A stretch of DNA of 32,000 nt from Ruminococcus albus 7 = DSM 20455 (GTDB lineage: Bacteria > Bacillota > Clostridia > Oscillospirales > Ruminococcaceae). This document shows, one piece after another, positions 820 through 32,000 of the stretch (within the stretch, counting starts at the first letter, position 1; each line of letters begins with the position of its first letter). The stretch lies in the NCBI RefSeq assembly GCF_000179635.2, contig NC_014833.1:2160001-2192000 (forward strand), given 5' to 3'. The position numbers and the translations under genes were made by a program. The notes under the pieces were generated by a model. It did no database searches and was not told where the DNA came from. It saw nothing but the letters and a program-made list of their open reading frames with translations.

Positions 820-1143
820 ATGAGAGCAGTACATAACAAACTCGTCCGTGACAAGATACCCGAGATAATCGAAAAAGCAAGCAAGACAGCCTACACACAT
901 ATCCTCTCCGACGAAGAATATATCTCCGAGCTAGACAAAAAGCTTGGCGAGGAATTTGCCGAGTATCAGGCTGACAAGAACATAGAAGAACTTGCCGATA
1001 TGTTGGAAGTTATGTATGCTATCGCCGAAGCAAGAGGATGGTCGGTATCTGAGCTTGAAGCTGTCCGTAAGTCTAAGGCTGAAAAGCGTGGTGGCTTCAA
1101 AAAGAAAATATACCTTGAGTATGTGGAGGAAGGAAATGAGTGA
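820..1143 (+). CDS. MazG-like all-alpha NTP pyrophosphohydrolase (PRA-PH-like / COG4997-type), 107 aa
   Basis: Hallmark N-terminus NKLVRDKIPEII, an acidic EExxE/EELADMLEV metal-binding helix pattern, and a C-terminal KxxKRGGF motif. GGGAG RBS at 806-810. The start was trimmed from the track TTG at 799 to the ATG at 820. Confidence 0.75.
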   Translation: MRAVHNKLVRDKIPEIIEKASKTAYTHILSDEEYISELDKKLGEEFAEYQADKNIEELADMLEVMYAIAEARGWSVSELEAVRKSKAEKRGGFKKKIYLEYVEEGNE

Positions 1144-16899: not shown

Positions 16900-17718
16900 T
16901 CACTCTTTTCTTTGATAGTACTTCCCATTCACACTGCCGCCGTCTACTAGAATATCAACTCCTGTAAGATAACCATTACGCTCGTCAGCCGCCATAGCTA
17001 TTGCAAATCCTAGTTCTTCCGGAGTTCCCATCCGTTTTTCAGCAGTGTATCTTAGCATAGATGAGCCCTCATTTTTCTCACATTCACCCATATCCGTAGC
17101 GATCAGTCCCGGGCTTAGTGAACATATCCGTATTCCACAACTACCATATTCAAAAGCTGATTTTTTTGCGTACCATATAACAAAATTCTTAGATAGGGCA
17201 TACGCAAGTCCTGAACTCTTGTAGCTGTCCTTTACAAAGCGGCACATTCTTAGTAGTTTGACAAGAAATTTCGCCTCATCCTTTTCGGCAAGTGTATATA
17301 TGCCTTTTGGGACCATAAATTTAGGGAGCTGATAAGCTGAGTTTGATGAAATGTCAACAATAACGCCTTTTTTCATTACCTTTGCAAACTCACTATTTAC
17401 ATATACCGTTCCGAGAGCATTTACTCTCAGTAACTTTTCAGGTTCAGCTATTGATGGTGAAAGACCTGCAGAATGGATCACATTTGTAACTTCGCCGAGG
17501 GATGCCGCATATCTCGCTAGTTCGTGTACCTGCTTTCTGTCAGATGTATCACAGGGCATGATATAAGTTTGCTTATCGTCGGCTTTCAATAATCTAGCTG
17601 CATTGTCGAGCTTTTGTATCGTTCTGCCGGAGAGCAGGAATATTCTGTCATTTGGCATAGCTTTTGCGGCTTCTAACCCCATTCCACTGCCACCGCCTGT
17701 TATCACACATACTTTCAT
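16900..17718 (-). CDS. SDR-family oxidoreductase (classical short-chain dehydrogenase)
   Basis: Cofactor motif TGGGSGMG and the YALSK catalytic Yxxx(K) motif. Confidence 0.85.
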   Translation of the reverse strand: MKVCVITGGGSGMGLEAAKAMPNDRIFLLSGRTIQKLDNAARLLKADDKQTYIMPCDTSDRKQVHELARYAASLGEVTNVIHSAGLSPSIAEPEKLLRVNALGTVYVNSEFAKVMKKGVIVDISSNSAYQLPKFMVPKGIYTLAEKDEAKFLVKLLRMCRFVKDSYKSSGLAYALSKNFVIWYAKKSAFEYGSCGIRICSLSPGLIATDMGECEKNEGSSMLRYTAEKRMGTPEELGFAIAMAADERNGYLTGVDILVDGGSVNGKYYQRKE

Positions 17719-17726
17719 ATTTTAAC

Positions 17727-18740
17727 TCATGCGATTTTCCCACTTGCTTTGAGCCATTTGATCTCATCGTGAATCGTTTCTCTGTATGATCTAGTTCGAT
17801 ATCCTAGCTCACGCTTTGCCTTTGAAGAATCAAAGTCGTTGTTCCTTGCAAGATTGTACACTGAAAATGTCTTCATAAGAGGCTTAACGCCTTTTCTTTT
17901 CGCACGCATTTCAGAGAGCCTTGCGATCATATTTGCGATTTGTATAGGCAGAAATGCCTTCGGCGCTTTGCAATTTGCTTCCTCGGAAACCAGTCGGCAA
18001 AACTCCTTGAAGCTGATCGCTTCGTTGCCTAAGATATAGCATTCACCCTGCCTTCCATTGTCAGCGGCTGCGATCATTCCTTCAGCAAGATCACGTACAT
18101 CGCAGAGATTAAATGTTCCGCTGATACCCATTGGCATTTCACCGCCGATTATCTTAATGAGCGTTCCGGTTGTTTCTCCAACTGCAAAATCTTCCGGTCC
18201 CATGATTCCGCTCGGATGAACAACGCATGCATTCAGTCCTCGCTCTTTTACGGCATCCAGCACCGCCTGCGTCGCCATAGCCTTTGACATAGAATAGCAG
18301 CCTTCGACTTTGTCCTTGTCAAAAAAATCTACCTCGGTGATTTTCTTGCCTTTTGGTGTTTCTGGGATAGCGCCTGTACTGCTGCAATAGACGAGTTTAT
18401 TACATTCGGGGTGTGCAAGACACATATCTATAATATTCTTCGTACCGCCAACGTTCACATCAATGACCTTCTGATTGAATGTCGGATCAACGGTCACGAT
18501 ACTTGCGATATGAAGCACTATGCTTTTCATGCCTTCGGGTACAGTAAAAAGCTTTTCGAGAGTTTCCCTGTCACAGAGGTCGCCTTGAACCACCTCTGCA
18601 CTGTCAGGTATATATTTTGCAGCCGGATCATTTTGCGGGACGAGAGCTCTTACTTTTTCTCCACGCTCTATAAGCTTACGGCATACTGTACCGCCTAAAA
18701 AACCTGCTGCACCTGTAACAATATAGATCATTTTGCTCAT
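17727..18740 (-). CDS. NAD-dependent epimerase/dehydratase family (extended SDR, dihydroflavonol/cinnamoyl-CoA-reductase-like)
   Basis: TGAAGFLGG Rossmann motif and YSMSK catalytic motif. AAGGAG RBS. Confidence 0.85.
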   Translation of the reverse strand: MSKMIYIVTGAAGFLGGTVCRKLIERGEKVRALVPQNDPAAKYIPDSAEVVQGDLCDRETLEKLFTVPEGMKSIVLHIASIVTVDPTFNQKVIDVNVGGTKNIIDMCLAHPECNKLVYCSSTGAIPETPKGKKITEVDFFDKDKVEGCYSMSKAMATQAVLDAVKERGLNACVVHPSGIMGPEDFAVGETTGTLIKIIGGEMPMGISGTFNLCDVRDLAEGMIAAADNGRQGECYILGNEAISFKEFCRLVSEEANCKAPKAFLPIQIANMIARLSEMRAKRKGVKPLMKTFSVYNLARNNDFDSSKAKRELGYRTRSYRETIHDEIKWLKASGKIA

Positions 18741-21209: not shown

Positions 21210-21713
21210 ATGGGACCGGTCAATGAAATGAAACTAGAATTTACCAACCGCATACTAAAAAATGAATATTATCAGGATCAGCTCCACATATTGTGTGAGC
21301 TTGAAAAAGACAGGATCTTCTGTCGTCACAATATTGAGCATTTTCTTAATGTTGCCCGAATAGCAATGATACTTTGCGGACGCAAACGCATCAAGATCTC
21401 TGCTGACATTATCTATTCGGCTGCACTTTTACATGATATCGGAAGAGTGCAGGAGTATACCGAGGGCATTGAACATGATGTGGCAAGTCAGTCAACAGCT
21501 GCTAAGATTCTCGACAGCATAGAATGTCCGCGTGATATACGCGAAAAGATCATCCGTCTTATTGCAAGCCATCGTAATACGAAAGCAGATCCCGATACAC
21601 CTGAAGCTATGTTCAATAAGGCAGACAAGCTCTCACGGAACTGCTTTGAATGTAATGCCAGGTCGCTGTGTAAATGGCAGAAAGATAAAATGAATTTGGA
21701 AATAGAGGTATAA
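21210..21713 (+). CDS. HD-domain phosphohydrolase (first gene of the folate operon)
   Basis: H..(NIEHFLNV).. and LLHDIGR motifs of the HD superfamily. It ends 2 nt before folP. The start codon is uncertain (21210 or 21228). Confidence 0.7.
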   Translation: MGPVNEMKLEFTNRILKNEYYQDQLHILCELEKDRIFCRHNIEHFLNVARIAMILCGRKRIKISADIIYSAALLHDIGRVQEYTEGIEHDVASQSTAAKILDSIECPRDIREKIIRLIASHRNTKADPDTPEAMFNKADKLSRNCFECNARSLCKWQKDKMNLEIEV

Positions 21714-21715
21714 TT

Positions 21716-22540
21716 ATGAAAATCGGCAACAGAGAATTTGATACTGAAAACGAATGCTATATTATGGGCATACTCAATGTGACACCTGACTCTTTTTCAG
21801 ACGGAGGTAAATTCAATAACATAGACAGTGCCCTTTCTCATGCAGAGGCAATGATATCAGAGGGTGTTGATATCATTGATGTCGGAGGAGAATCCACAAG
21901 ACCGGGGTTTACACGTATCAGTGACGATGAGGAGATAAGCAGGATCGTACCTGTAATTGAAGCTTTAAAGGAAAGATTCGATGTTCCTGTTTCAATTGAC
22001 ACATACAAATATAAAGTCGCTTCAGCGGCAGCAGAAGCCGGTGCAGATCTTTTCAATGATATTTACGGGCTTAAATACGACAATGGCGAAATGGCTGCAT
22101 TTATTGCAAAAAGCGGTCTGCCTTGCTGCCTGATGCATAACAGGAATAATATGGACTACGTCTGCTTTATGGACGATCTTATAAATGATATGCGAGAAAC
22201 AGTCGATATTGCTAAAAAAGCCGGTATCACCGACGATTCCATTATTCTTGATCCGGGTGTTGGATTTGCAAAGTCCTTGGAAAACAATCTTGAAGCTATC
22301 GACCGTCTGGATATGCTTAAAAATGAACTGGGATATCCAGTACTGCTCGGTACCTCCAGAAAATCAGTGATAGGCCTTACTCTTGATCTACCAAGTGATC
22401 AGCGTGTTGAGGGAACTATTGCAACAACTGTTATCGGAGTTATGCGAGGTGCTGCGTTTGTACGTGTTCACGACGTCAAAGAAAACCTAAGGGCGGTTAA
22501 AATGACACAGGCTATAATGAGAGGTTACAAACGTGGATAA
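21716..22540 (+). CDS. folP: Dihydropteroate synthase
   Basis: IMGILNVTPDSFSDGG, DIIDVGGESTRPG and ILDPGVGFAK are canonical DHPS motifs. Confidence 0.95.
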   Translation: MKIGNREFDTENECYIMGILNVTPDSFSDGGKFNNIDSALSHAEAMISEGVDIIDVGGESTRPGFTRISDDEEISRIVPVIEALKERFDVPVSIDTYKYKVASAAAEAGADLFNDIYGLKYDNGEMAAFIAKSGLPCCLMHNRNNMDYVCFMDDLINDMRETVDIAKKAGITDDSIILDPGVGFAKSLENNLEAIDRLDMLKNELGYPVLLGTSRKSVIGLTLDLPSDQRVEGTIATTVIGVMRGAAFVRVHDVKENLRAVKMTQAIMRGYKRG

Positions 22541-23351
22541 GATATGTATTGAAGAACTGAGAATATTTGCGCATCACGGAGTATTTGAACATGAAAATAT
22601 AAACGGACAGAATTTCTATGTCAACTCCGCGCTGTATGTAGATACAGAAAAAGCCGGGATGAACGATGATCTGGAAAGCTCCGTGGATTACAGCAAAGTA
22701 TGCGAACTTCTTGAAAAGGTAATGACAGAAAATACCTTCAAGCTGATTGAAACTGTCGCACAGAAAGCCGCTGAAACTATTCTCATGGAATATCCGATCG
22801 TCAGTGCTGTTGATTTGGAGATACGCAAACCTGAAGCTCCTATAGATATGGATTTCAGCTCAGTATCAGTTAAGATACACAGAGGATGGCATAGAGTTCT
22901 TCTCTCTCTCGGGTCAAATATGGGTGACAGCAGGGGATACCTTGAAAATGCTTTTGAAAAGCTGCGTGAGTGTCCTTATATACGAAATGTAAAATGCTCC
23001 GAGCTTATTATAACCAAGCCTTATGGTTATACAGAACAAGCTGATTTTGTTAATGGTGCAGTGATATGTGAGACAATGCTCAGCCCTCACGGATTGCTTG
23101 AATTGACGCAGTCCTTAGAAAATTCAGCTGACCGCAGACGTGAGATACACTGGGGACCGCGCACCCTTGATGTGGATATTGTGTTCTATGACGATGAAGT
23201 TATATCTGATCCTGATCTGATAATACCGCATCCTGATATGCATAACCGTGAATTTGTACTCGCACCGGCAGCTGAGATAGCATCCTATTACCGCCACCCA
23301 ATATCAGGTAAAACAGTTTCACAGCTCCTTGCTGAGTTGGCAAAACAATGA
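22533..23351 (+). CDS. folBK: Bifunctional dihydroneopterin aldolase / 6-hydroxymethyl-dihydropterin pyrophosphokinase
   Basis: N-terminal FolB region (LRIFAHHGVFEHENINGQNF). C-terminal HPPK region (VLLSLGSNMGD, WGPRTLDVDIV, IPHPDMHNREFVL). GTG start overlaps the folP stop. Confidence 0.9.
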   Translation: MDKICIEELRIFAHHGVFEHENINGQNFYVNSALYVDTEKAGMNDDLESSVDYSKVCELLEKVMTENTFKLIETVAQKAAETILMEYPIVSAVDLEIRKPEAPIDMDFSSVSVKIHRGWHRVLLSLGSNMGDSRGYLENAFEKLRECPYIRNVKCSELIITKPYGYTEQADFVNGAVICETMLSPHGLLELTQSLENSADRRREIHWGPRTLDVDIVFYDDEVISDPDLIIPHPDMHNREFVLAPAAEIASYYRHPISGKTVSQLLAELAKQ

Positions 23352-23839
23352 TATGCATTATCGCGGCAGTAGCCGCTAACGGTATAATTGGCTCAAATGG
23401 AGGTATCCCCTGGGATATTCCTGAAGACAGACATTATTTCAGAAATATCACTGAGGATGGTGTCTTGATTATGGGCAGACGTACCTATGAGAGCATCGGC
23501 AGACCGCTGCCCGGAAGGTACAATATTGTTATTTCACGCAATACAGACTACACAGGCAGTATGCTCAGAACAGTAGCGAACCTTGAAGAGGCTATCAAAG
23601 CAGCAGAAAGATATGTTCAACGCAAAAGGAAAGGGGATATATTCCTCTGTGGAGGTGCTGAGATATACCGTCAGGGACTTGCTTTTACGAAAAAATTGTA
23701 TCTGACCGAACTTTATGACGAATATGAAGGCGATGTGTATTTCCCAGAGTTCAATCGTGACGAGTTCGGCTGTGTGAGCTGTGATGAACACCATGAGCTC
23801 GGACTACGGTTTTGTGTCTATGAGCGTTTAAATAAATAG
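23348..23839 (+). CDS. folA: Dihydrofolate reductase
   Basis: IIAAVAANGIIGSNGGIPW, LIMGRRTYESIG and CGGAEIY are classic DHFR motifs. ATGA overlap with the upstream gene. Confidence 0.95.
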   Translation: MICIIAAVAANGIIGSNGGIPWDIPEDRHYFRNITEDGVLIMGRRTYESIGRPLPGRYNIVISRNTDYTGSMLRTVANLEEAIKAAERYVQRKRKGDIFLCGGAEIYRQGLAFTKKLYLTELYDEYEGDVYFPEFNRDEFGCVSCDEHHELGLRFCVYERLNK

Positions 23840-23903: not shown

Positions 23904-23931
23904 TAAACGTCTCTTCATCGAGGCGTTTTTT
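23904..23931 (+). terminator. Rho-independent terminator of the folate operon
   Basis: AAACGTCTC / GAGGCGTTT forms a 9-bp stem with one G-U. It runs into a T7 tract. Confidence 0.7.
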
Positions 23932-23986: not shown

Positions 23987-24020
23987 ACTCCGACAAGCAG
24001 GAAGACTGTTGGAGTTTTTT
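23987..24020 (+). terminator. Second, orphan terminator-like hairpin
   Basis: ACTCCGACA / TGTTGGAGT forms a 9-bp stem with one G-U and an 11-nt loop, followed by T6. It lies 56 nt after the first terminator. Confidence 0.45.
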
Positions 24021-24420
24021 GTTATACTCAAATCTTCCTGTGTAAAATAGTGAATACAAGAGGAGCATATATTAATCAAAAAATATAAATATCATATATA
24101 TTCAAGTTTTTGGGATATATGAGCGTATATATGAACAAAAAACGAAGATTTTAGAAAAATAATCATCAAACATCACTGAATTATTTTTACAATCTTAGCT
24201 AATTTTAGCATAGCTGACGAAACCATTGGATTTTAAGATTTTTACTTTACTTTTCAGAGAAAAAATGGTATTATAAATTAAAGATATGTCATTTATGGAT
24301 ACGAAAATGGATATTTCAGTTCTGATATGCTGGTTTATATACTGATTCAATTTTCGTATTAATACAATGAACTGCATTAATTACCGTACTTGTGTTATAT
24401 AATTGTCTGGAGACTGAGAA

Positions 24421-25317
24421 ATGTATAAAAGAGTTTTTTTATTTAATGGTATTGGTCCAAGCTATGAAAAACTGCTTGCAAAACTAACACCTGAACTTAT
24501 GGATAAATATTCATACTATTACGAAACCGCCTGTTCAAGACTTGGACTTAATAAGGATATCGGAAAAAATCTGGGATATGACTCAAAGATAGCGCAGTGG
24601 CTAGTACCATTTGTTTGTGACAGAGTGATATATGAGTACTGCATCAGCAAAGGCATAACTCCTGATATCGGCATTGGTTACAGTTCCGGCATAGTAAGTG
24701 CAAGTGCCTGCTTCAATGCGATACCTCATGAGGCTGCATGGGATATAGTTAAATCTCACAGGTCTATGCTAATTGCGTTGGACGATGCTCATGAGGAGCT
24801 TGATACCGGAATAATCGTAGGATTCTCTTATGATGACCTTTCAGAACTGCTCAACAAGGAATTCTCACCTGACGATCTTGTTATCGGCAGCGGTAACTCT
24901 ACATTCCACGCTATGATTAGCGGTAAAGCAAGCGCGGTCGAAAAGGCTATAGAAATCTGCACCAACGAAGGAGCACTGAAAGCTTTCCGCCTGAATACCG
25001 GCACAGCTTTCCACCATTCAATAATGAAGAAGTATTCACTGGAATACATCAAGTACTGTAATGACCTGAAATACAATGATCCTGATTATCCGATGATGTC
25101 TGTTTTCGATTTAACCGTACTGACTACAGCCGAGCAGGTGGCTCGTGAAAATCAGCTTAATGTGTATACGCAGATGCGATGGGATCTTGCACTGAAAGAA
25201 CTGGAAAAGCTTGGAGTGACAGAGTTTTTCGACATAAGTGCGAACGGTTCGCTCAGTAAACTGTCAAGAGTTGGCAGAAAGTGTAAAATGTACACTTTCG
25301 ATGATATATGTTCATAA
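24421..25317 (+). CDS. Free-standing acyltransferase (FabD / trans-AT-like, malonyl-CoA:ACP transacylase fold)
   Basis: N-terminal FLFNGIGPSY (compare FabD FLFPGQGSQ). Nucleophile elbow GIGYSSG (GxSxG). The R of HRSML is a candidate carboxylate-binding Arg. TGTAFHHS resembles the FabD AFHS His. GGAG RBS. Confidence 0.75.
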   Translation: MYKRVFLFNGIGPSYEKLLAKLTPELMDKYSYYYETACSRLGLNKDIGKNLGYDSKIAQWLVPFVCDRVIYEYCISKGITPDIGIGYSSGIVSASACFNAIPHEAAWDIVKSHRSMLIALDDAHEELDTGIIVGFSYDDLSELLNKEFSPDDLVIGSGNSTFHAMISGKASAVEKAIEICTNEGALKAFRLNTGTAFHHSIMKKYSLEYIKYCNDLKYNDPDYPMMSVFDLTVLTTAEQVARENQLNVYTQMRWDLALKELEKLGVTEFFDISANGSLSKLSRVGRKCKMYTFDDICS

Positions 25318-25496
25318 TCAGAATTTGTATCTGCGTATAATTGCAGCTAGGTTTGTTAAATATTTATCAATTTAGCACAGTAAGATCTTTACTGTACTAA
25401 AAAGCTGTCGGGTGTGGCTTTCAGTTTTCAATGGAAAGCTCTGAAGGCTGAAAGCTGTACCTAACAGCTATAAAGCTTTATTTGGAGGTAAACATA

Positions 25497-25799
25497 ATGA
25501 GAGAAATTACAAATGAGATCAAAGCTGAGATCAAGGACATGATATTTGATTATTATGCAGAGGAATGCGAAGTTGACAAAACATCCATAAATGAAAATAC
25601 CAATCTTCAGGATGACCTGGAAAGCGATTCCCTGATGCTGGTAGAGCTGATCGAGATGACCGCTGATAAGTTCGACATGGACATAAAGTTACAGAGTATC
25701 GGTAAATATATGCTGAAAACACCCATGAACACCATGAGTGACGTTATTGATATGTTCTGCAAAGTATATCAGTACGGTAATGATATCGTTGATCAGTAA
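25497..25799 (+). CDS. Acyl carrier protein
   Basis: LQDDLESDSLMLVELIEM contains the DSL phosphopantetheine attachment motif. 100 aa and acidic. GGAGG RBS. Confidence 0.85.
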   Translation: MREITNEIKAEIKDMIFDYYAEECEVDKTSINENTNLQDDLESDSLMLVELIEMTADKFDMDIKLQSIGKYMLKTPMNTMSDVIDMFCKVYQYGNDIVDQ

Positions 25800-25810
25800 G
25801 AGGATAAGCA

Positions 25811-26527
25811 GTGAAATCAGTTTTATCAGAGATACATTCCGAAGGCAGTATTGCAGTGCTCACCATCGAAAACGGTCCGAAAAACCTGATATCCGAACCG
25901 GAATTCATCGAGCGTGAGAAGCTGATAGCGTGGCTGGAGGAGAATCCACAGACTAAGGCACTGATCATAACAGGGAATGGAAAGCATTTCTCGCACGGTG
26001 CCGATGTTTCGCTATTTGATGCGGATAATGTAAATAGCATTTCTGACAAGCTCAAAAAGGGCAGGGAACTGCTGAACACAATCGAGCACCTGCCTATATT
26101 AACTGTAGCAGCTGTTAACGGAGGCTGCTTCGGCGGCGGACTTGAAATTGCAATGAGTTGTCAGTTTCGTATTGCCTCATCCAAAGCGCGTATGGGACTT
26201 ACTGAGGTCATGCATGGAGTAGTTCCGGGCATGGGTGGAATGGAACGACTTTCCCGTATTGTTGGCAGGGATAAGGCTCTGCAAATGATATTGCAGGGCG
26301 AAATGCTATCAGCTGATAAGGCGTTCTCTATCGGACTTGTTACAAAAGTAACCGAGGAAAAGGACGCTCTCCCCGAGGCACTGAGATTTGCTGAGGATAT
26401 TGTATCATCAGCAAGCATAACCGTGATAAATTCGGTAATAAATACGTTGAACAGGGCTGTTGACGGTGATGCTGATCCTTCATCCGGTGCTTTTGAAGCG
26501 GCACTTGAGGAGGCTTTCAGAAAATGA
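25811..26527 (+). CDS. Enoyl-CoA hydratase/isomerase (crotonase) family protein 1
   Basis: TGNGKHFSHGADV oxyanion-hole segment, NGGCFGGGLEIAMSC and GLTEVMHGVVPGMGG. GTG start. Confidence 0.85.
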   Translation: MKSVLSEIHSEGSIAVLTIENGPKNLISEPEFIEREKLIAWLEENPQTKALIITGNGKHFSHGADVSLFDADNVNSISDKLKKGRELLNTIEHLPILTVAAVNGGCFGGGLEIAMSCQFRIASSKARMGLTEVMHGVVPGMGGMERLSRIVGRDKALQMILQGEMLSADKAFSIGLVTKVTEEKDALPEALRFAEDIVSSASITVINSVINTLNRAVDGDADPSSGAFEAALEEAFRK

Positions 26528-26940
26528 GAAAATGTGTATACAACTTGACAGTCAGAGGTTATGAACTTGACTCTTTTGGTCATGTGAACAATGCAGTTTA
26601 TTTACAGTACGCAGAAGCCGCACTCTGGAACTTTTTCAAAATAAACCAACTTATGGAGTATACTCTTGACAGGGGTATATTCCCTGTGCTTATGGAGTGT
26701 TCGCAGAGGTATATACACGAATTGAAACTGCTTGATGAGGTGCGTATTGAATCTGAGTTTACAGCCAAGGGTGAAATGATGCTCTACAAGCACAACATAA
26801 TTAACAACACCACGGGTCTGATATCCTGTAAAATAAAGGGCAGACTTATTTTCGTAAACCATGAGCGAGTGATCCACAGTATCCCTGATGAAGTCAAGGA
26901 AATATTAGAAAGTGAGACAAATGAAGATCATAATAAATGA
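26524..26940 (+). CDS. Hotdog-fold (4HBT/YbgC-like) acyl thioesterase
   Basis: VRGYELDSFGHVNNAVYLQYAEAA is the typical 4HBT class N-terminal motif. ATGA overlap with the upstream crotonase. Confidence 0.8.
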   Translation: MRKCVYNLTVRGYELDSFGHVNNAVYLQYAEAALWNFFKINQLMEYTLDRGIFPVLMECSQRYIHELKLLDEVRIESEFTAKGEMMLYKHNIINNTTGLISCKIKGRLIFVNHERVIHSIPDEVKEILESETNEDHNK

Positions 26941-27328
26941 ATTATATACAGAAGTTAGCGATGTTGATTTGCTTTCAGAACTTATATGCGCAGAACCAGG
27001 TGAGCCGTGCCTGCTCATTATCCATGATAATGGAAATATGCAGATAGGAGACGAAGCGAAGGTTTGCGATTTTTTCGCTGATCTGCCGTATATCACAGCG
27101 CTTGCTTCTGATGACCCTGATGCAGATATAGCTAAATACTTCGATATAGTTATACCTGCCGAGAATGCTGACAAATACGCAGAAATCTTGTTCAAGGAAA
27201 AGACTGAATTTCAGATCAGGGAAATAACAAGTTGCTTCGTAACTGCAAGAAACGGCTCCAGAAATGATATTCTTGATGCTGAATCAAGGTCATTTTACCG
27301 ACTTATAAAACAGATCAGCAGGAGGTGA
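26921..27328 (+). CDS. Hypothetical protein, possibly a truncated or degenerate crotonase-fold protein (135 aa)
   Basis: LPYITALASDDPDADIAKYFDIVIPAENA loosely mirrors the crotonase kPvIAAvnG.a.GGG.elal.cD..iA.e.A segment, but acidic residues sit where the glycines would be. There is no GxGxxFxxGxD segment. It overlaps the thioesterase by 20 nt. Confidence 0.45.
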   Translation: MKIIINELYTEVSDVDLLSELICAEPGEPCLLIIHDNGNMQIGDEAKVCDFFADLPYITALASDDPDADIAKYFDIVIPAENADKYAEILFKEKTEFQIREITSCFVTARNGSRNDILDAESRSFYRLIKQISRR

Positions 27329-27333
27329 GCATT

Positions 27334-28026
27334 ATGGGTGATATCCTGCTTAATAAAGAAAACGATATACTCACAGTTGTGATGAATGCACCAAAAAATA
27401 ACCTTATGACTACTCAGTTCCACAAGGAATTTGAGGCTGTTATGGAAAAAGTACGTGTGATTGCAAAGAGTGACAGTATAAGAGGTATGATAATATACGG
27501 CGGTGGAAGACATTTCTGTGTCGGTGCTGATGTTGATGCCCTTATGGAACGCTCAGCTTCGGAAGTATACGACGATACTTCCGGAGATCTTCCCGAAAGT
27601 CACATTGAGGAGAAGCATCACTTCACATTTCTGCGTGACCTTCCATTCCCGGTGATAAGCGTAGTTACAGGATTCTGTATAGGCTCAGGCAGCGAGATCG
27701 CTCTCAATTGTCACTACAGGATCGTCGAGAAGGGCGCACGTATAGGTCAGCCTGAATCTACTTTCGGCATACTTCCCGGACTTGGAGGAATTGCCGGGAC
27801 TATCGAACTTTGTGGTATGAAGAACGCCTATGAGCTTGTTATGACAGGAAGACTTTTCCCTTCTGAGGAGGCTTGCGAGCTCGGCTGGGGAGATATTCTC
27901 ACCGATAAAAAGCATGGACTTGCTGAGGCATATTCATTGATAGACTTTATATCAGAAGAATACGGTGAATTCTCACCTGAAGACTACCGCAGATATATCA
28001 GATTATACAAGATCAGGGGTGACTGA
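27334..28026 (+). CDS. Enoyl-CoA hydratase/isomerase (crotonase) family protein 2
   Basis: YGGGRHFCVGADVDAL, TGFCIGSGSEIALNC and GQPESTFGILPGLGG. GGAGG RBS 8 nt before the ATG. Confidence 0.85.
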   Translation: MGDILLNKENDILTVVMNAPKNNLMTTQFHKEFEAVMEKVRVIAKSDSIRGMIIYGGGRHFCVGADVDALMERSASEVYDDTSGDLPESHIEEKHHFTFLRDLPFPVISVVTGFCIGSGSEIALNCHYRIVEKGARIGQPESTFGILPGLGGIAGTIELCGMKNAYELVMTGRLFPSEEACELGWGDILTDKKHGLAEAYSLIDFISEEYGEFSPEDYRRYIRLYKIRGD

Positions 28027-28027
28027 C

Positions 28028-29152
28028 ATGAATATCGGAATTGCAGGGTACGGAAAAATGGGAAAAGACATTTTCTCCCTTTTCCTCGATAATCTGGATA
28101 ATGCTGTATTTACTGTACTTGTCCGTTCCGGTGCAGAAGAGTATACTGCCTCTGTATTAAAGACTCTTGATAAACAGCTTCGACGGAAGAAACTGACTCA
28201 GGATGAATACAAATCTAAGAAAGCTGCCTTCAGATTTACTTGTGACCCTGCTGACTTTAAAGACTGTGATGCAGTGATCGAGACTATTTCTGAGAAACTT
28301 GAGTCTAAAAATTCGCTTTTCAGAAATATTGCAGATATAGTTTCTGATAATTGCCTGCTTATGACAAATACTTCGTCGCTGAATATAGAGAACGTTTTCA
28401 CGGGCGTTTCAGGCACTCAGCGCTGCATGGGTATGCACTTTTTCTACCCTGTCAAACTTGCAGAATTCGTAGAACTTAACCTTATGGATAATACTTCCGA
28501 AGAAGCTCTGCAACTGGCAGAAAACCTTGTGCATGACTGCGGACGCAGGAGTATTCGTTTTCGCGGGAATTATCATTTGTATCTTAATCAGATACTTTCT
28601 GCTATGGTATCACATGGCATATATCTTTGTGATTTTTTAAACACTTCTATTCCGGATCTTTCAGCTTCTTTGGAAAAGATGTATTCCGTCGCTGGTGTAT
28701 TCGATATACTTGACAGCGTTGGACTTGGACTTATGGCTGAAAATCAGACAAATTTCCGATTGGAACGCAATAAGCAGCTTCTGGAATATGGCTGTGATCA
28801 AATGAAGTACTGGCTGAGTCAGGGCTGTGCGGATAGTCCGCGTAGTTTCATTGACTTTATCAAGTGTCAGGAGCAGGAGAGCGATAATGTAGAAAACTGT
28901 GACGATGCTCCTATTTATATGGCTGCATTTATCCTTGCTGAAACATCTTTCGCGCTTGAAGAATCTTGTATCAATCCTGATATTCTCCTTGAAGGTGTAA
29001 GATGTACTCTCGGCACAGTTGATACACTACCGGAAATGTACAGAAAATATGGTGCAGAAAAGCTCATGTCTGCACTCGATGAACTCTATGAAAAGAGCGG
29101 ATTTTCGTCTTACAGATACGATCCTGATCTATTTGATAAATATTATACGTGA
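28028..29152 (+). CDS. 3-hydroxyacyl-CoA dehydrogenase family protein (NAD-binding plus C-terminal domain, with a C-terminal extension)
   Basis: IGIAGYGKMGKDI Rossmann motif and GMHFFYPVKLAEFVEL (compare the HFFNP signature). The start is 1 nt after the upstream stop. Confidence 0.8.
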   Translation: MNIGIAGYGKMGKDIFSLFLDNLDNAVFTVLVRSGAEEYTASVLKTLDKQLRRKKLTQDEYKSKKAAFRFTCDPADFKDCDAVIETISEKLESKNSLFRNIADIVSDNCLLMTNTSSLNIENVFTGVSGTQRCMGMHFFYPVKLAEFVELNLMDNTSEEALQLAENLVHDCGRRSIRFRGNYHLYLNQILSAMVSHGIYLCDFLNTSIPDLSASLEKMYSVAGVFDILDSVGLGLMAENQTNFRLERNKQLLEYGCDQMKYWLSQGCADSPRSFIDFIKCQEQESDNVENCDDAPIYMAAFILAETSFALEESCINPDILLEGVRCTLGTVDTLPEMYRKYGAEKLMSALDELYEKSGFSSYRYDPDLFDKYYT

Positions 29153-29187
29153 TCCCGCAGGGGAGTGCTAACAGAGAGGTACGTGAA

Positions 29188-30396
29188 ATGAAAAAAGTAG
29201 TTATAACAGGGCTAGGTGCTGTAACAGCACTGGGTAATAATGTCCAGGATTACTGGAATGCGCTGATAGAAGGCAAAAGCGGTATGCGTACTATAACCCG
29301 TGTACCTGCTGAAAATCATGATACAACAGTAGCAGCCGAGGTAGATGACTCATTTGAGCAGGAAGCTTCAAAATACTGGAAAAAACGAATGCTAAGCGCA
29401 ACTACCAAAGCAGTAAGAATGGGCCTAGCTTCTGCTGGCGAAGCTATTGAGGACTGCGGCGCGGACTTCGCTTCTCTTGACCGTTCAAGGATAGGCATTA
29501 TCTATGGACTTGCGGATAATACTTACGAGGGTGTGGAGCTGGAGAATAAGTCCCATATAACACTGAAGCGTATGCAGAGCGAAATACCCGCAATGATTGC
29601 GATCAAGCATAATATCACAGGACCATCATTTAATATGAGTACTGCCTGTGCTTCATCAGGATATGCTATGGCTCTGGGTAAGCATCTGATCCAGTCAGGT
29701 CTATGTGATATGATAATAGTGGGCGGACTTTCTTATGTGGTGAACGATGCCGTACTTGACGGATTCAACCAACTTCTTGCAATGTCTGTAAACCCCGATC
29801 CGAATAAGGCAAGCCGACCTTTCACAAAAAACCGTGACGGCTTTATCATGGGCGAAGGCGGCGGAACAGTGGTTCTGGAATCTGAGGAACACGCCAGGTC
29901 AAGGGAAGCAAAGATATACTGCGAACTTGCAGGCGCATCTATAAGCTGTGAAGCTAGTAGTCTTACTGCACCTCAGGCAGATGGCGCCGGTATGGCATAC
30001 TCCATGAGATGTGCTCTTGAAGATGCCGGTATAACTCCCGATGAAGTGGGTTATATCAATGCCCATGGCACTTCTACTACGTTAAATGATCTCTATGAGA
30101 CTATGGCGATAAAGCAGATCTTTGGTGAAAAAGCCTATGACATCCCGGTTTCTTCCATAAAGGCAGCTATCGGTCATACCCTTGCCGGATGCGGCGTAAT
30201 TGAGGCTATCGCATGCGTCAAAGCTATCGAGGAAGGCATATTACCGCCTACAGTTCATTTCGATGAACCTGATCCGGAGCTTGATCTGAACTACATACCC
30301 AATTCAGCACTTAAAAAGGATATCAATGTTGCTGTATCTAATGCTTTTGGCTTTGGCGGGCATGATGCGACACTAGTTTTCAGAAAATATAACTGA
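29188..30396 (+). CDS. Beta-ketoacyl-ACP synthase, FabF/KAS-II type (Cys-His-His)
   Basis: VVITGLGAVTALG, active-site TACASSG, NAHGTSTTLND, KAAIGHTLAGCG and the C-terminal FGFGGHDATLVF. Confidence 0.9.
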   Translation: MKKVVITGLGAVTALGNNVQDYWNALIEGKSGMRTITRVPAENHDTTVAAEVDDSFEQEASKYWKKRMLSATTKAVRMGLASAGEAIEDCGADFASLDRSRIGIIYGLADNTYEGVELENKSHITLKRMQSEIPAMIAIKHNITGPSFNMSTACASSGYAMALGKHLIQSGLCDMIIVGGLSYVVNDAVLDGFNQLLAMSVNPDPNKASRPFTKNRDGFIMGEGGGTVVLESEEHARSREAKIYCELAGASISCEASSLTAPQADGAGMAYSMRCALEDAGITPDEVGYINAHGTSTTLNDLYETMAIKQIFGEKAYDIPVSSIKAAIGHTLAGCGVIEAIACVKAIEEGILPPTVHFDEPDPELDLNYIPNSALKKDINVAVSNAFGFGGHDATLVFRKYN

Positions 30397-30412
30397 GAGA
30401 GGAATGGAAAAA

Positions 30413-30766
30413 ATGCCTATCGCACAGATGAAAACCAACTTCAAAATGAACGACGTTTCTAAAAAGGAATTTCTGGATGATATTGCAGGGGAAATGGCAA
30501 AGCTTCTGAAAAAGCCCATTCCGGCTGTAATGGTCATGCTGGACAACTGCTATATGGACATGAATAGATCTGAGGATACCGTTTTTTTCTCTGAATTCCG
30601 CTACGTTATGCCACAGGAATTTGACGGCGATAAAAGTGGATTTATGAAAAAGTTTGCAGATACAATGCTGGCAGTCATCCAAAAACACACAAAAGTTGAT
30701 CCCTACCGCATATATATGCAGTTTACAGAGATGGACAGACAGAGCGCTTGGCACTATACAGAATGA
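30413..30766 (+). CDS. MIF / D-dopachrome-tautomerase-like tautomerase superfamily protein (117 aa) with predicted catalytic Pro1
   Basis: MPIAQMKTNF...ISxxLAKLLKKPIPAVMV...DPYRIYMQFTEMDRQSAWHY parallels MIF (MPMFIVNTNV...ATGKPPQYIAV...[20 protein letters not shown]). The chosen ATG leaves Pro directly after Met. Confidence 0.65.
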   Translation: MPIAQMKTNFKMNDVSKKEFLDDIAGEMAKLLKKPIPAVMVMLDNCYMDMNRSEDTVFFSEFRYVMPQEFDGDKSGFMKKFADTMLAVIQKHTKVDPYRIYMQFTEMDRQSAWHYTE

Positions 30767-30781
30767 GAAAGGAATGATAAT

Positions 30782-31906
30782 ATGAAATGGTCAATAAGAG
30801 AACTTCTTAACCCGGTGGTCACCAGATCAATGCTTTACGGAAGTGATCCATTTGATACAGAATACGTTTTGAAAAGAGTAGACGAGATAGACGTCATGAG
30901 CGGTAAGAAAATACAGGCTGTATGGCTTGGTGAATGGGGCAAGAAGATCGCTCATTACGCAGAACTTCGTGATCAGAACGAGGCTAAGGAAAACCGTATC
31001 TCTGCAAGAGCATACGCTAAAATGGTCGCTCAGTGCTGGTACGCTTGCTATATGGTTAATATTCAGGACTTGGAGCAGAAGGTCTCCATTTATAATAACC
31101 TGGCTGAAAGCTACAGAAAGTATACTGAACTATGCGATAACAAGATAGAGTACGTTGAGATAGATACAGCTTTCGGAAAGCTTCCTGCTTATATCCACTA
31201 TCCCGATGACGGCAGCAAGGAAAGCTATCCTATCGCTATAACCTACTCGGGCATCGGTAGCTGTAAAGAGGAACTTGATATGCTGGCAATGCCACTTAAT
31301 GAGCGTGGAGTTGCAGTTATAACCCCTGATATGCCCGGAACAGGCGGCGCTGTTATATGGAATAACGTGAAGTGCGGCGGTGACGAACTGGAAGCCGCTT
31401 TCGATGGTATTTACAAGTTCATTGACAGCCGCAGTGAACTGGACAGCACCCGTATAGCTAACTTTGGTCTGTGCATGGGCGGCGGTTATGCTATCAGAGC
31501 AACAGCAAAGAATCCTGCTGTTAAATGCTGCGTAGCACTTTTCCCGCTTATGATATGCTATTGCAAGCTTGATTCCGTACCGATATGGATGAAGAAGGGC
31601 AAGTGGACTTCCTACCAGACAAATGATGACTATATGGAAACGATGAATGTTCTCTCCGAGGGTACTCTCAGCTCCGATTTCTTCCTTGTTCACAGCGATT
31701 ACGATAACTGGATGACCCACGAGGCAAATGATATCCTCTACAGCAAGGCTACAGGTTACAAGGAGAGACTTGAAGTTACTGAAAGACCTGCCTATGTTTC
31801 CGAGGAAACTATCATGCACGCAATGCCGGTAGGTGAGCAGTTCCATTGGGTAAAGCATATAACTGCTGATTTCATTGCACAGAGACTTACAGGAGAAACC
31901 AAATGA
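30782..31906 (+). CDS. Alpha/beta hydrolase (DUF1100/FrsA-like architecture) with Cys at the nucleophile elbow
   Basis: The nucleophile elbow reads FGLCMGGGYA (G-x-C-x-G, as in dienelactone hydrolase GYCLGG). An N-terminal helical lid region precedes the hydrolase core. Candidate acid (HSDYDNW) and His (IMHAMP) follow. Confidence 0.7.
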   Translation: MKWSIRELLNPVVTRSMLYGSDPFDTEYVLKRVDEIDVMSGKKIQAVWLGEWGKKIAHYAELRDQNEAKENRISARAYAKMVAQCWYACYMVNIQDLEQKVSIYNNLAESYRKYTELCDNKIEYVEIDTAFGKLPAYIHYPDDGSKESYPIAITYSGIGSCKEELDMLAMPLNERGVAVITPDMPGTGGAVIWNNVKCGGDELEAAFDGIYKFIDSRSELDSTRIANFGLCMGGGYAIRATAKNPAVKCCVALFPLMICYCKLDSVPIWMKKGKWTSYQTNDDYMETMNVLSEGTLSSDFFLVHSDYDNWMTHEANDILYSKATGYKERLEVTERPAYVSEETIMHAMPVGEQFHWVKHITADFIAQRLTGETK

Positions 31907-32000
31907 GCATGAATTTCTTTGATTATTACAGCAAATACGCTCAGGAGACACCTGACAAGATCCTTCTGAGAATAGATGAGAATACACTGACATACAGTCA
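31903..32000 (+). CDS. AMP-dependent synthetase/ligase (acyl-CoA/acyl-ACP ligase), 5' end only, truncated by the window edge
   Basis: MSMNFFDYYSKYAQETPDKILLRIDENTLTYS matches the usual N-terminus of adenylate-forming ligases (..A...PDK.AL......LTY). ATGA overlap with the upstream stop. Confidence 0.5.
   Translation, partial: MSMNFFDYYSKYAQETPDKILLRIDENTLTYS

Follow-up and report, generated by a model that had tools for sequence, protein, structure and literature searches.

A conserved, uncharacterised operon of Ruminococcus combining a FAS/type-II-PKS-like gene set with beta-oxidation-family enzymes and a separable ligase-hydrolase cassette

The 3' end of the window (the whole stretch of DNA analysed, 32,000 nt) carries genes resembling those of fatty-acid synthesis (FAS), which raises the question of whether they serve primary metabolism or a dedicated pathway. 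Between positions 24421 and 32000, eleven co-directional ORFs were found on the + strand where an initial annotation had placed them, almost abutting and with intact catalytic motifs (Table 1). Their spacings are, in order, +179, +11, -4, -29, +5, +1, -4, +16, +15, and -4 nt; the spacer between the acyltransferase (AT) and the first carrier protein (ACP1) is thus the sole large gap, as had been noted. The cluster end, expected past position 32000, was located on a public contig (L001) identical to window positions 24421-32000 (0 mismatches in 7580 nt). This contig adds the rest of an adenylate-forming ligase (519 aa in full), an 83-aa carrier protein (CP2), and a 236-aa PF00975 thioesterase, after which convergent ABC-transporter genes follow. 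The complete operon comprises 13 genes over ~10 kb, 11 of them inside the window, and no PPTase, regulator, or exporter is encoded within this unit. Gene families were assigned with Pfam and NCBIfam profiles. Start sites were refined for ACP1 (25497), crotonase 2 (27334), the dehydrogenase (28028), and the MIF-like protein (30413). The true start of the ketosynthase (KS) is probably the ATG at 29188, since the 13 residues before it are unconserved and several orthologues are 402-403 aa long.

Table 1. Features of the operon and its non-coding surroundings (window positions unless marked L001)
Feature	Position	Strand	Assignment or basis
Terminator-like hairpin and T-run	23905..23928 (= L001 3124-3147)	+	3' of the DHFR gene; consensus scan only
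Upstream intergenic region, two sigma-70-like promoter matches	24019..24274	+	Consensus scan
Free-standing acyltransferase (AT), divergent FabD-like, 298 aa	24421..25317	+	Acyl_transf_1/TIGR00128
Long hairpin within AT-ACP1 spacer	25403..25469	+	Folding of spacer
Carrier protein 1 (ACP1), 100 aa, DSL serine	25497..25799	+	PP-binding, 26 bits
Crotonase 1 (ECH1), 238 aa	25811..26527	+	ECH_1, 4e-39
Hotdog thioesterase, 4HBT_2/YbgC-FadM type, 138 aa	26524..26940	+	Pfam/NCBIfam
Unknown-family conserved protein (UNK), 138 aa	26912..27328	+	Conserved across loci, no family match
Crotonase 2 (ECH2), 230 aa, divergent C-terminus	27334..28026	+	ECH_1, 8e-29
3-Hydroxyacyl-CoA-dehydrogenase-family oxidoreductase (HADH), 374 aa	28028..29152	+	3HCDH_N, 1e-33
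FabF-type ketosynthase (KS), Cys-His-His triad	29149..30396	+	TIGR03150/PRK07314
MIF-family tautomerase-superfamily protein, 117 aa	30413..30766	+	Pfam MIF, family profile
Cys-nucleophile alpha/beta hydrolase, 374 aa	30782..31906	+	DHPON-hydrolase/AntI/Ayg1/FrsA fold
Adenylate-forming AMP-binding ligase, 5' end	31903..32000	+	519 aa, complete on L001 11122-12681
Carrier protein 2 (CP2), 83 aa, DSLG	L001 12684-12935		After ligase
PF00975 type II thioesterase, 236 aa, GHSMG	L001 12937-13647		After CP2

The same gene order is shared by about 50 of 57 Ruminococcus/Oscillospiraceae loci (species-level genomes), among them R. flavefaciens isolates, R. champanellensis, and 'R. albus' SY3/AR67, with protein identities of 33-98%. 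Additional metagenome contigs hold the operon in this order as well, and loci departing from it are either cut at contig ends or are rearranged or truncated copies. This co-conservation rules out a chance arrangement. The motifs quoted there (GYSSG, AFHH, DSL, the KS Cys-His-His triad, HFFYP, and GLCMGGG) proved genuine, being kept in 47-61 orthologues per family. The supposed range of gut and rumen Clostridia was narrowed: the operon belongs to Ruminococcus sensu stricto, a fibre-associated gut genus. No characterised cluster matching it was found in the full-text literature searched for this genus and gene set, as the annotation had surmised, and the operon is both real and uncharacterised.

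With a FabF-type KS, a FabD-like AT, and an ACP, the operon could be taken for a housekeeping fatty-acid synthase, or for a FabM/FabF-type module making unsaturated fatty acids anaerobically; FabM, a crotonase-family enzyme, isomerises enoyl-ACP in streptococcal FAS. However, the AT reached 74 bits with the fabD model (TIGR00128), whose cut-off is 261, and remained under the gathering score of Pfam Acyl_transf_1. ACP1 scored 27-35 bits with ACP models whose cut-offs are 66-106. The KS fell below the fabF equivalog cut-off (TIGR03150, 413 bits against 494) while passing the subfamily model PRK07314 (401 against 387). Moreover, FabG, FabZ, FabI/K, FabH, and ACC are absent from the gene list of every locus, as are an enoyl reductase, HMG-CoA synthase (HMGS), and CLF; the annotation's statement on the last three holds over the full 13-gene unit. 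A fatty-acid synthase has no use for a ligase, a second carrier protein, two thioesterases, a tautomerase, or a C-C hydrolase. The position of the operon also differs among species, with unrelated neighbours: in the window these are folate genes, whereas R. champanellensis has pyruvate kinase/PFOR and R. flavefaciens has ECF/ABC2 genes at the flanks. Truncated copies adjoin a MobA/MobL relaxase. A housekeeping role is consequently extremely unlikely, and the locus stands as the orphan carrier-protein-dependent biosynthetic operon, separate from primary FAS, that had been described.

The AT shows conservation of 95% or more at GySSG and His198/199 across orthologues. The AT is presumed to charge ACP1 with malonyl, although this specificity is uncertain because the GQGSQ motif of FabD is missing and R114, which corresponds to the Arg, varies among orthologues (conservation at least 70%). 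ACP1 (64-95% identity across loci) has an unusually long, strongly conserved C-terminal extension. The KS retains STACASS, INAHGTST, and GHTL. Pfam and PDB matches agree with the earlier proposal that Hbd/Crt-like enzymes of beta-oxidation families occupy the FabG and FabZ roles. The first ~200 residues of the HADH are covered by Hbd/FadB structures, with NTSS, HFFYP, and the Glu conserved, and the protein is a putative ketoreductase. ECH1 best matches the short-chain enoyl-CoA hydratase Crt in the PDB (1.5e-36) with both catalytic Glu positions kept, and is the putative dehydratase of the loop. ECH2 aligns with positions 2-168 of the 251-position ECH_1 profile, has the FadB hydratase domain as its top PDB match (3.5e-22), and conserves Glu at both positions. 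The hotdog thioesterase conserves its YELDSFGHVNN motif, including the Asp.

The co-occurrence of crotonases and an acyl ligase had suggested a parallel with DSF-family cis-2-enoic acid signals, the crotonase being RpfF-like and the ligase RpfB-like. Against this, neither crotonase had a chain named RpfF or DSF synthase among its top 60 PDB matches, Crt and FadB hydratases being the best, and no RpfF-type model appeared among the 25 best NCBIfam matches of each. The ligase is, furthermore, fixed beside a carrier protein and a thioesterase rather than placed for signal turnover. Both crotonases best match ordinary enoyl-CoA hydratases; the parallel was not borne out and a DSF-type signal is very unlikely. 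Co-location of AT, ACP, KS, and two crotonases also recalls the trans-AT PKS beta-branching cassette (AT, ACP, KS0, HMGS, ECH1, ECH2), of which the operon might be a remnant or variant. Yet HMGS is missing from all loci, the KS retains its active-site Cys where KS0 has Ser, the crotonase PDB matches are unlike PksH/PksI/CurE/CurF, and no modular PKS lies nearby, making this the least probable origin of all.

UNK, initially called a degenerate crotonase-like protein, was found to have no match in Pfam, NCBIfam, or the PDB. Alignment with ECH1 by hhalign gave 21% probability over 33 columns, and the crotonase assignment was not supported. UNK reaches 199 aa in other loci, and its AF2 model (pLDDT 40) was unusable. 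It lies immediately 5' of ECH2 in all loci examined, and the two are retained or lost jointly in rearranged loci.

Downstream of the KS, the genes for the tautomerase, Cys hydrolase, ligase, CP2, and PF00975 thioesterase make up a cassette that is separable from the extension set and that has one or two ligases depending on the locus. The MIF-like protein begins with Met-Pro, and MPI[AC]Q.KTN and a KP motif are invariant or almost so. Its Pfam MIF score is weak (21.4 bits; 40.9 in the L068 orthologue), but the family profile matched MIF/L-dopachrome isomerases in the PDB at 2e-13 with Pro1 aligned, which supports the MIF-type tautomerase assignment made earlier. The hydrolase belongs to the FrsA-like family (formerly DUF1100), and its profile matched 2jbw (4e-69), AntI (2e-42), and an Ayg1-like chain (2e-34). 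Its triad aligns as Cys231/Asp/His, with Cys in place of Ser; GLCMGGG is at least 95% conserved, and the ~20 closest 50%-identity clusters all have Cys while remoter ones have Ser. The AF2 model (pLDDT 92) gave 2jbw, FrsA, AntI (TM 0.80), and Wdyg1p/Ayg1p as best Foldseek matches. The Cys-nucleophile FrsA/DUF1100 assignment was upheld. The protein is a full-length relative of retro-Claisen C-C (beta-diketone) hydrolases, which describes it better than a general esterase or lactonase for product release. The ligase is the most conserved protein of the set (67-93% identity) and has an acyl/aryl-acid-type A4 motif, LYHQGG.

More distant Cys hydrolases (29-38% identity) also adjoin AMP-ligases and a carrier protein, and twice lie directly 3' of a tautomerase, MIF-like in L070 and of the 4-OT type in L071. 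In Lachnospiraceae the order is hydrolase-ligase-CP-TE-ligase2, without FAS-like genes. Free-standing cassettes mostly contain two ligases, whereas Ruminococcus has one ligase plus the FAS-like set, a contrast consistent with supply of the second acyl partner by the FAS-like arm. In L068 the FAS-like set coexists with a second ligase, so replacement of ligase 2 by the FAS arm is not a strict rule.

Somewhat better than evenly supported, in our judgement, is the reading of the locus as a dedicated secondary-metabolite operon templated on carrier proteins, in which a FAS/type-II-PKS-like extension set has been joined to the separable cassette. Its product would most likely be an unsaturated polyketide-like small molecule, built by enzymes of fatty-acid-breakdown families. 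The AT would charge ACP1 with malonyl, the KS would carry out condensation, the HADH would reduce the 3-keto group, and a Crt-like crotonase would dehydrate the product. Because there is no enoyl reductase, the 2-enoyl chain would be retained, and iteration of the loop may give a conjugated polyenoyl chain. The ligase would place a free carboxylic acid on CP2. The hydrolase, acting via an acyl-S-Cys intermediate, may form or cleave a C-C bond and so couple or trim the two arms, assisted by the tautomerase, which would control whether a 1,3-dicarbonyl or alpha-keto-acid intermediate is in its keto or its enol form. This coupling role is suggested by homology and synteny; the characterised relatives (DHPON hydrolase, AntI, Ayg1) differ in that they cleave C-C bonds and do not form them. 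The PF00975 thioesterase would release the product, and the hotdog thioesterase may edit or off-load ACP1. The route drawn in the initial annotation, from a ligase-loaded starter through KS extension, reduction, dehydration, and tautomerisation to release, is plausible; its observation was confirmed, and its interpretation as a whole partly supported. A simple loop does not account for a single KS without a CLF, or for two crotonases with a UNK partner.

Hbd/Crt-type enzymes usually act on CoA thioesters and are reversible, and they could work oxidatively on the thioester made by the ligase. Here the ligase would activate an unsaturated or aryl plant acid, such as a fibre-released hydroxycinnamate/phenylpropanoid, for beta-oxidative shortening on carrier protein or CoA: a crotonase hydrates, oxidation by the dehydrogenase gives a 3-keto thioester, and retro-Claisen cleavage by the C-C hydrolase follows, after which KS, AT, and ACP1 add one extension to the shortened unit. 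Beta-oxidation enzymes are indeed the best matches of the crotonases and HADH, and characterised hydrolase relatives split beta-diketones. In two short loci (L013, L016; AT-UNK-ECH2-KS-hydrolase-ligase) the dehydrogenase is lacking, so ECH2 is not dehydrating a ketoreductase product there. The hosts carry fibre-degrading machinery, and a dockerin-bearing GH43 is encoded in the window. PDB matches of the ligase include 4-coumarate-CoA and feruloyl-CoA ligases (~1e-36), but these are ANL-generic, with salicylate-AMP ligase, fatty-acyl ligases, and NRPS A domains scoring alike. Free-standing cassettes contain neither hydratase nor dehydrogenase, and a malonyl-type AT, dedicated ACP, and decarboxylating KS are anabolic hallmarks. 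Such an oxidative pathway is unlikely, and the biosynthetic operon is preferred. Speculatively, the latter could account for the yellow colour of R. flavefaciens, a pigment so far unexplained.

Upstream, the terminator-like hairpin separates the folate operon from the cluster. Two candidate promoters, one at 24019-24048 and a TG-extended one at 24246-24274, are no more than suggestive, the match count not being above that of shuffled sequence. The entire 179-nt AT-ACP1 spacer folds with an MFE of -58.3 kcal/mol (z = -5.1). Its hairpin occurs once in the window, is present in L009 and L010 and missing in L012, and is lineage-specific.

The R. albus 7 operon is a type II FAS/PKS-like gene set with a previously undescribed cassette of tautomerase, Cys hydrolase, ligase and carrier protein. 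ORF listing and Pfam/NCBIfam matches confirmed the eleven co-directional open reading frames described in the initial annotation, with families as claimed for all but one. In order, these encode a divergent FabD-like acyltransferase (AT), a carrier protein (ACP1), a crotonase (ECH1), a 4HBT_2 hotdog thioesterase, a 138-aa protein (UNK), a second crotonase (ECH2), a 3HCDH_N dehydrogenase, a FabF-type ketosynthase (KS), a protein with a weak MIF match, an FrsA-like (formerly DUF1100) hydrolase, and an AMP-binding ligase of which the window holds only the first 32 codons. With starts taken from public gene calls, the gaps between them are +179, +11, -4, -29, +5, +1, -4, +16, +15 and -4 nt. A public contig (L001), identical to the window across all 7580 bases of the operon stretch, continues with the full ligase (519 aa), a carrier protein (83 aa, DSLG; hereafter CP2) and a PF00975 thioesterase (236 aa, GHSMG), 3' of which the genes switch to the opposite strand. 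Based on this strand switch and on a terminator-like hairpin upstream, 3' of the DHFR gene, the operon was delimited as a unit of 13 genes and ~10 kb. No PPTase, regulator or transporter was found inside the unit, and the window as a whole gave no match in scans with Rfam (gathering threshold) or for tRNAs.

Coordinates of features in the window and in related public loci
Feature	Sequence	Position	Strand	Details
Restriction- or defence-type helicase	window	992-3403	+	ResIII/Helicase_C/SWI2-SNF2, 803 aa
GH43 enzyme	window	7965-10511	-	GH43_C, two ricin-B lectin domains, C-terminal type I dockerin
Mutator/IS256-family transposase	window	15325-16608	-	intact (Transposase_mut, 1.7e-119)
SDR and adjoining epimerase	window	16900-18740	-	adh_short/adh_short_C2; NAD-dependent epimerase/dehydratase
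Folate operon	window	21210-23839	same as operon	HD-domain protein, folP, fused folB-folK, DHFR
Terminator-like hairpin	window	23905-23928
Operon (part in window)	window	24421-32000
AT-ACP1 spacer	window	25318-25496		179 nt
Spacer hairpin	window	25403-25469		~27 bp, near-perfect, without T-run
ACP1	window	25497-25799		100 aa
UNK	window	26912-27328		138 aa
Start of MIF-like gene	window	30413		gives protein with N-terminal Met-Pro
Truncated copy	L014	10001-18300		AT-UNK-ECH2-KS only
Second AMP-binding ligase	L067	12538-14133		~530 aa, 3' of thioesterase
Second AMP-binding ligase	L068	12676-14256		~530 aa, 3' of thioesterase
Second AMP-binding ligase	L069	12561-14156		~530 aa, 3' of thioesterase
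ECF-type transporter genes	L067	4554-8652	same as cassette	directly upstream of cassette
ECF-type transporter genes	L069	1683-5796	same as cassette	directly upstream of cassette
ECF-type transporter genes	L006/L007	8525-9712	same as cassette	directly upstream of cassette

The folate operon lies directly upstream of the unit, and this synteny is kept in 'R. albus' AR67 but not in other species. A functional tie between the two was rejected, since the terminator-like hairpin lies between them and the flanks differ in other species. The AT-ACP1 spacer as a whole has an MFE of -58.3 kcal/mol (z = -5.1). Its long hairpin is single-copy in the window and kept only in the two closest relatives (AR67 and contig L010); more distant loci have spacers of 40-70 nt without it. 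The hairpin could be an inserted palindromic element, or it could serve in mRNA processing or stability.

The operon is real and strongly conserved. A scan of species-level genomes revealed 57 related loci, and tblastn with all 13 proteins found the same gene order in about 50 of them; the gene set is co-conserved in other genomes. The remaining loci were cut by contig ends or were rearranged or truncated copies. Identities in this search were at their extremes for the dehydrogenase (33-78%) and the ligase (67-93%). Because the flanks vary among lineages, the 13 genes behave as one cassette. In all, species-level genomes with the operon number more than 50. The genome-scan matches included nine R. 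flavefaciens isolates with names (ATCC 19208, FD-1, 007c and others), all of which have the operon, as does AR67, also matched in the scan; 'R. albus' SY3 was added by a ligase search (93% identity). R. champanellensis has the operon too, yet was not returned by the scan, in which its nearest match (L052) has only 84% DNA identity; absences from the scan are therefore unreliable. AT homologues were confined to Ruminococcus/Oscillospiraceae in the homologue search, and in the public contig collection the AT of R. champanellensis was indexed in 297 blocks and that of R. flavefaciens in 179. AR67 and the window share ~85% DNA identity both over the operon and over the syntenic folate genes, and judged by DNA comparison the window organism is a species separate from AR67.

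Alignments of 47-61 orthologues per family showed that all expected catalytic residues are kept. These include GySSG and His of AT, the Ser of both carrier proteins, both Glu of both crotonases, the hotdog Asp, the NTSS, HFFYP and Glu of the dehydrogenase, the KS Cys-His-His triad, Pro1 of the tautomerase, GLCMGGG, DNWM and His of the hydrolase, and GHSMG of the thioesterase. ACP1 carries a ~35-residue C-terminal extension (KLQSIGKYMLK.PM.TM.DV..MFCK.YQYGNDIV) which is better conserved than the ACP core and is unusual among acyl carrier proteins. Full-text literature searches aimed at the genus and the gene set found no description of the operon. R. flavefaciens, R. champanellensis and related bacteria play a key part in degrading fibre in the rumen and human colon, and very few small molecules are known from them.

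The operon is very probably not a primary FAS cluster, in agreement with the initial reading. AT scored 74 bits against the fabD model (cut-off 261), ACP1 27-35 bits against ACP models (cut-offs 66-106), and KS 413 bits against the fabF equivalog (cut-off 494), passing only the subfamily model PRK07314. Moreover, no FabG, FabZ/FabA, FabI/K/L, FabH or ACC gene was found in the 13-gene unit at any of the loci with gene lists examined. The initial exclusion of a beta-branching cassette and of an aromatic type II PKS held as well. The unit has a single KS with its active-site Cys and no second KS-like gene, CLF or cyclase family, while HMG-CoA synthase is absent from all locus gene lists read; as the KS Cys is conserved, there is no Cys-to-Ser KS0. 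What the unit contains is a KS, presumed ketoreductase (KR), presumed dehydratase (DH) and ACP without an enoyl reductase (ER), the KR and DH drawn from non-orthologous families (HADH and ECH). This would be an uncommon route to polyketide-type chemistry, in which beta-oxidation-family enzymes stand in place of FabG and FabZ. An SDR gene, of a Pfam family named for enoyl-ACP reductases, is located 6-7 kb upstream of the operon on the opposite strand, next to an epimerase gene; it was not counted as the missing ER because it is absent from the locus gene lists of other lineages.

Other parts of the initial reading fared less well; its observations stood with one descriptive claim excepted, and its interpretation did so only in part. 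The suggested analogy with the RpfF/RpfB enzymes of DSF signalling was not supported: the best PDB matches of the crotonases are ordinary hydratases (Crt 1.5e-36, FadB 3.5e-22), and among the top 60 PDB matches of either crotonase no chain was named as RpfF/DSF synthase, PksH/I, CurE/F or MenB. The one descriptive claim to fail, the label of degenerate crotonase for UNK, was dropped. UNK has no Pfam, NCBIfam or PDB match, its hhalign comparison with ECH1 gave 21% probability over 33 columns, and none of the 12 other operon families exceeded that value. Only 10 close homologues of UNK were found, and its AF2 model (pLDDT 40) is unusable. For the ligase, PDB and NCBIfam matches were generic for the ANL superfamily.

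The weak MIF match could be strengthened. The profile of the MIF-like family matched MIF/L-dopachrome isomerases in the PDB over its full length (2e-13) with Pro1 and the Lys-Pro motif aligned; within the family MP is invariant and KP is at least 90% conserved, and the orthologue in one related locus (L068) passes the Pfam MIF gathering score. The MIF family is marked by a Pro1 exposed after Met removal, a beta-alpha-beta fold of ~115 aa and a Lys-Pro motif, and by these matches the protein is a predicted MIF-family tautomerase.

The profile of the hydrolase aligned over the full length with three characterised C-C hydrolases, namely 2,6-dihydroxy-pseudo-oxynicotine (DHPON) hydrolase (4e-69), AntI (2e-42) and fungal Ayg1/Wdyg1 (2e-34), with the triad aligned as Cys/Asp/His. 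An AF2 model (pLDDT 92) found DHPON hydrolase/AntI/Ayg1-type structures first (TM 0.72-0.80). The protein thus shows the alpha/beta-hydrolase core, N-terminal helical domain and aligned nucleophile-Asp-His triad of the FrsA-like family (PF06500), and shares this fold, N-terminal helical domain included, with AntI, Ayg1p/Wdyg1p and DHPON hydrolase. It does not have their Ser nucleophile; Cys is found in the window protein and in its ~20 nearest representative clusters, throughout the hydrolase clade, whereas Ser occupies the position in 90 of 118 aligned matches, mostly more distant ones. The family is small, with only 22 clusters at E 1e-30 or better when 1.84 billion representative proteins were searched exhaustively. 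AntI shortens the polyketide in the type II PKS system for Photorhabdus anthraquinones and Ayg1p/Wdyg1p act in fungal DHN-melanin synthesis; both cleave C-C bonds of polyketide 1,3-dicarbonyl systems by retro-Claisen reaction. The hydrolase of the operon has genes for ligases and a carrier protein as its neighbours rather than an aromatic PKS.

Outside Ruminococcus, ligase relatives of 53-58% identity occur in two settings. One locus (L068) has another ligase in addition to the complete set; in [Clostridium] polysaccharolyticum and a relative, the set is limited to hydrolase, ligase, carrier protein, thioesterase and a second ligase, without the FAS-like genes. This second AMP-binding ligase of the outgroup loci is absent from the window lineage. 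Distant Cys-hydrolases (29-38% identity) also adjoin AMP-ligases, a pair of them on contigs of sufficient length, and a carrier protein is present in three of the four lineages concerned. The gene sets are MIF-like gene, hydrolase, two ligases, carrier protein and alpha/beta hydrolase (contig L070); 4-OT-type tautomerase, hydrolase and ligase (L071); hydrolase and two ligases (L072, L073); hydrolase, two ligases and carrier protein (L074, L075); and ligase, carrier protein, hydrolase and ligase (L076). From these neighbourhoods, the conserved core consists of the Cys-hydrolase, ligase(s) and carrier protein, often with a tautomerase and thioesterase, and Ruminococcus has joined this core to an AT/ACP/KS/dehydrogenase/crotonase set. 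A recurrent cassette of tautomerase, Cys C-C-hydrolase-fold enzyme, ligase and carrier protein is thereby brought to light. ECF-type transporter genes (DUF4430, double ABC ATPase and CbiQ, or an ECF_trnsprt S-component) directly precede the cassette in Lachnospiraceae and R. flavefaciens, an association that the window does not show; substrate import is a possible role for them.

Rearrangements within the genus were also observed. Two Ruminococcus MAGs have, in place of one 13-gene unit, two complementary and partly duplicated versions, AT-UNK-ECH2-KS-hydrolase-ligase (L013, L016) and AT-ACP1-ECH1-hotdog-dehydrogenase-KS-MIF-hydrolase (L036, L041). UNK and ECH2 are confined to one locus type and ACP1, ECH1, hotdog, dehydrogenase and MIF to the other. 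Judging by such partial second copies, UNK and ECH2 move together, as do ACP1, ECH1 and hotdog, which hints at sub-modules. Two further contigs (L014 and L025) have only AT-UNK-ECH2-KS. These were rejected as a functional minimal version, being truncated copies. In L014 the next genes encode an ABC-F ATPase and a MobA/MobL relaxase, which suggests that a mobile element has either transported or interrupted part of the operon there.

Aryl polyene (APE) and related FAS-like polyene clusters, such as the cyl (granadaene) operon of Group B Streptococcus, encode discrete AT, ACP, KS, ketoreductase and dehydratase without an enoyl reductase; APE clusters also contain two carrier proteins, an adenylating enzyme and a 4HBT hotdog thioesterase. 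The operon resembles them in all of these components. However, where APE clusters have a FabG-type KR, a FabZ-type DH and a KS/CLF pair, the operon has a KR of the 3-hydroxyacyl-CoA-dehydrogenase family (3HCDH_N), a crotonase (ECH_1) as DH and no CLF partner. It also lacks LolA/MMPL export and glycosyl- or acyl-transfer genes, and has a tautomerase and a C-C-hydrolase-fold enzyme in addition. A second likeness is to the aspulvinone, atromentin and ralfuranone synthetases, NRPS-like A-T-TE enzymes which condense aryl alpha-keto acids; MIF-family enzymes tautomerise arylpyruvates, the substrates of synthetases of this type. The ligase, carrier protein and PF00975 thioesterase correspond, as separate proteins, to the A-T-TE domain set; a difference is that the ligase is of the acyl/aryl-CoA-ligase type. 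The Cys hydrolase is extra here, as is the second ligase in most of the free-standing cassettes seen.

In the proposed pathway, AT would place malonyl on ACP1, KS would carry out the condensation, the Hbd-like dehydrogenase would reduce the 3-keto group and the Crt-like crotonase would dehydrate the product. With no enoyl reductase the chain would stay unsaturated, and a conjugated polyene is possible if the loop iterates. The ligase would load a second acid onto CP2. Coupling or trimming of the two arms may then fall to the Cys hydrolase, which would form or cleave a C-C bond of an intermediate, either a 1,3-dicarbonyl or an alpha-keto acid, whose keto/enol state would be set by the tautomerase. 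The PF00975 thioesterase would release the product and hotdog would edit ACP1. Most free-standing cassettes have two ligases and Ruminococcus has one plus the FAS-like arm, which suggests that the second acyl partner comes from this arm. The chief alternative runs in the oxidative direction, with a ligase-activated plant acid being hydrated, oxidised and cleaved by retro-Claisen reaction. The dehydrogenase and both crotonases do have clostridial Hbd/Crt (butyrate) and FadB-type enzymes as best matches, with catalytic residues kept. Their scores are all far under equivalog cut-offs, the C-terminal half of the dehydrogenase (~170 residues) is divergent, and the operon embeds them with AT, ACP and KS, in contrast to the thiolase and acyl-CoA dehydrogenase of a beta-oxidation context. 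The oxidative route is considered improbable, and the biosynthetic pathway is preferred.

R. flavefaciens is characterised by, and takes its name from, a yellow pigment; this is reported to be distinct from celluxanthenes, its genes not assigned. The 'yellow affinity substance' of C. thermocellum was solved in 2025 as aryl-polyene tetronates (PMC12144888, PMC11839114). Their celluxanthene/flavoaffinin (cex/faf) genes encode an iterative type I PKS (CexF), ligase, ACP, two KASIII and an alpha/beta hydrolase, and indole-3-pyruvate, which as an alpha-keto acid can enolise, was put forward as the second acid (PMC12144888, PMC11839114). According to one of the two papers, R. flavefaciens DSM 25089 lacks a cex-like cluster and does not make celluxanthenes. 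In gene content, cex/faf and the operon share an AMP-ligase, a free-standing carrier protein and an alpha/beta hydrolase, and both are found in cellulolytic anaerobes. The presumed logic is also alike, a KS/KR/DH polyene without ER being coupled to a second thiotemplated acid. However, cex/faf uses one iterative type I PKS and two KASIII for fusion, whereas the unit contains discrete enzymes and no type I PKS or KASIII, leaving the Cys hydrolase and tautomerase as candidates for the coupling step. With its predicted ER-less extension loop and second thiotemplated acid, the operon has a logic suited to such a pigment, and it is a specific candidate for the locus behind the R. flavefaciens pigment, the question left by the celluxanthene work. 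In this scheme the ER-less KS/Hbd-like/Crt-like loop would give a polyenoyl-ACP, which a new type of Cys-nucleophile C-C-hydrolase-fold enzyme and the MIF-type tautomerase would fuse to an enolisable alpha-keto acid on CP2. If so, the cassette would represent an undescribed system for thiotemplated C-C coupling. That the operon supplies the genes wanted for the yellow pigment associated with cellulose, as a discrete-enzyme and non-orthologous celluxanthene/flavoaffinin counterpart, is nonetheless speculative and on balance unlikely, since SY3 and AR67, both named R. albus, have the operon too and the genome-scan absences are unusable. For the same reasons, a correlation of the operon with yellow R. 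flavefaciens against white R. albus was weakened. Literature searches found no pigment data for carrier strains, including SY3, AR67, 007c and R. champanellensis.

Elsewhere in the window, an intact transposase and a helicase of restriction or defence type are encoded. The GH43 enzyme, with its dockerin, is of cellulosome type, which fits a fibre-degrading Ruminococcus host.
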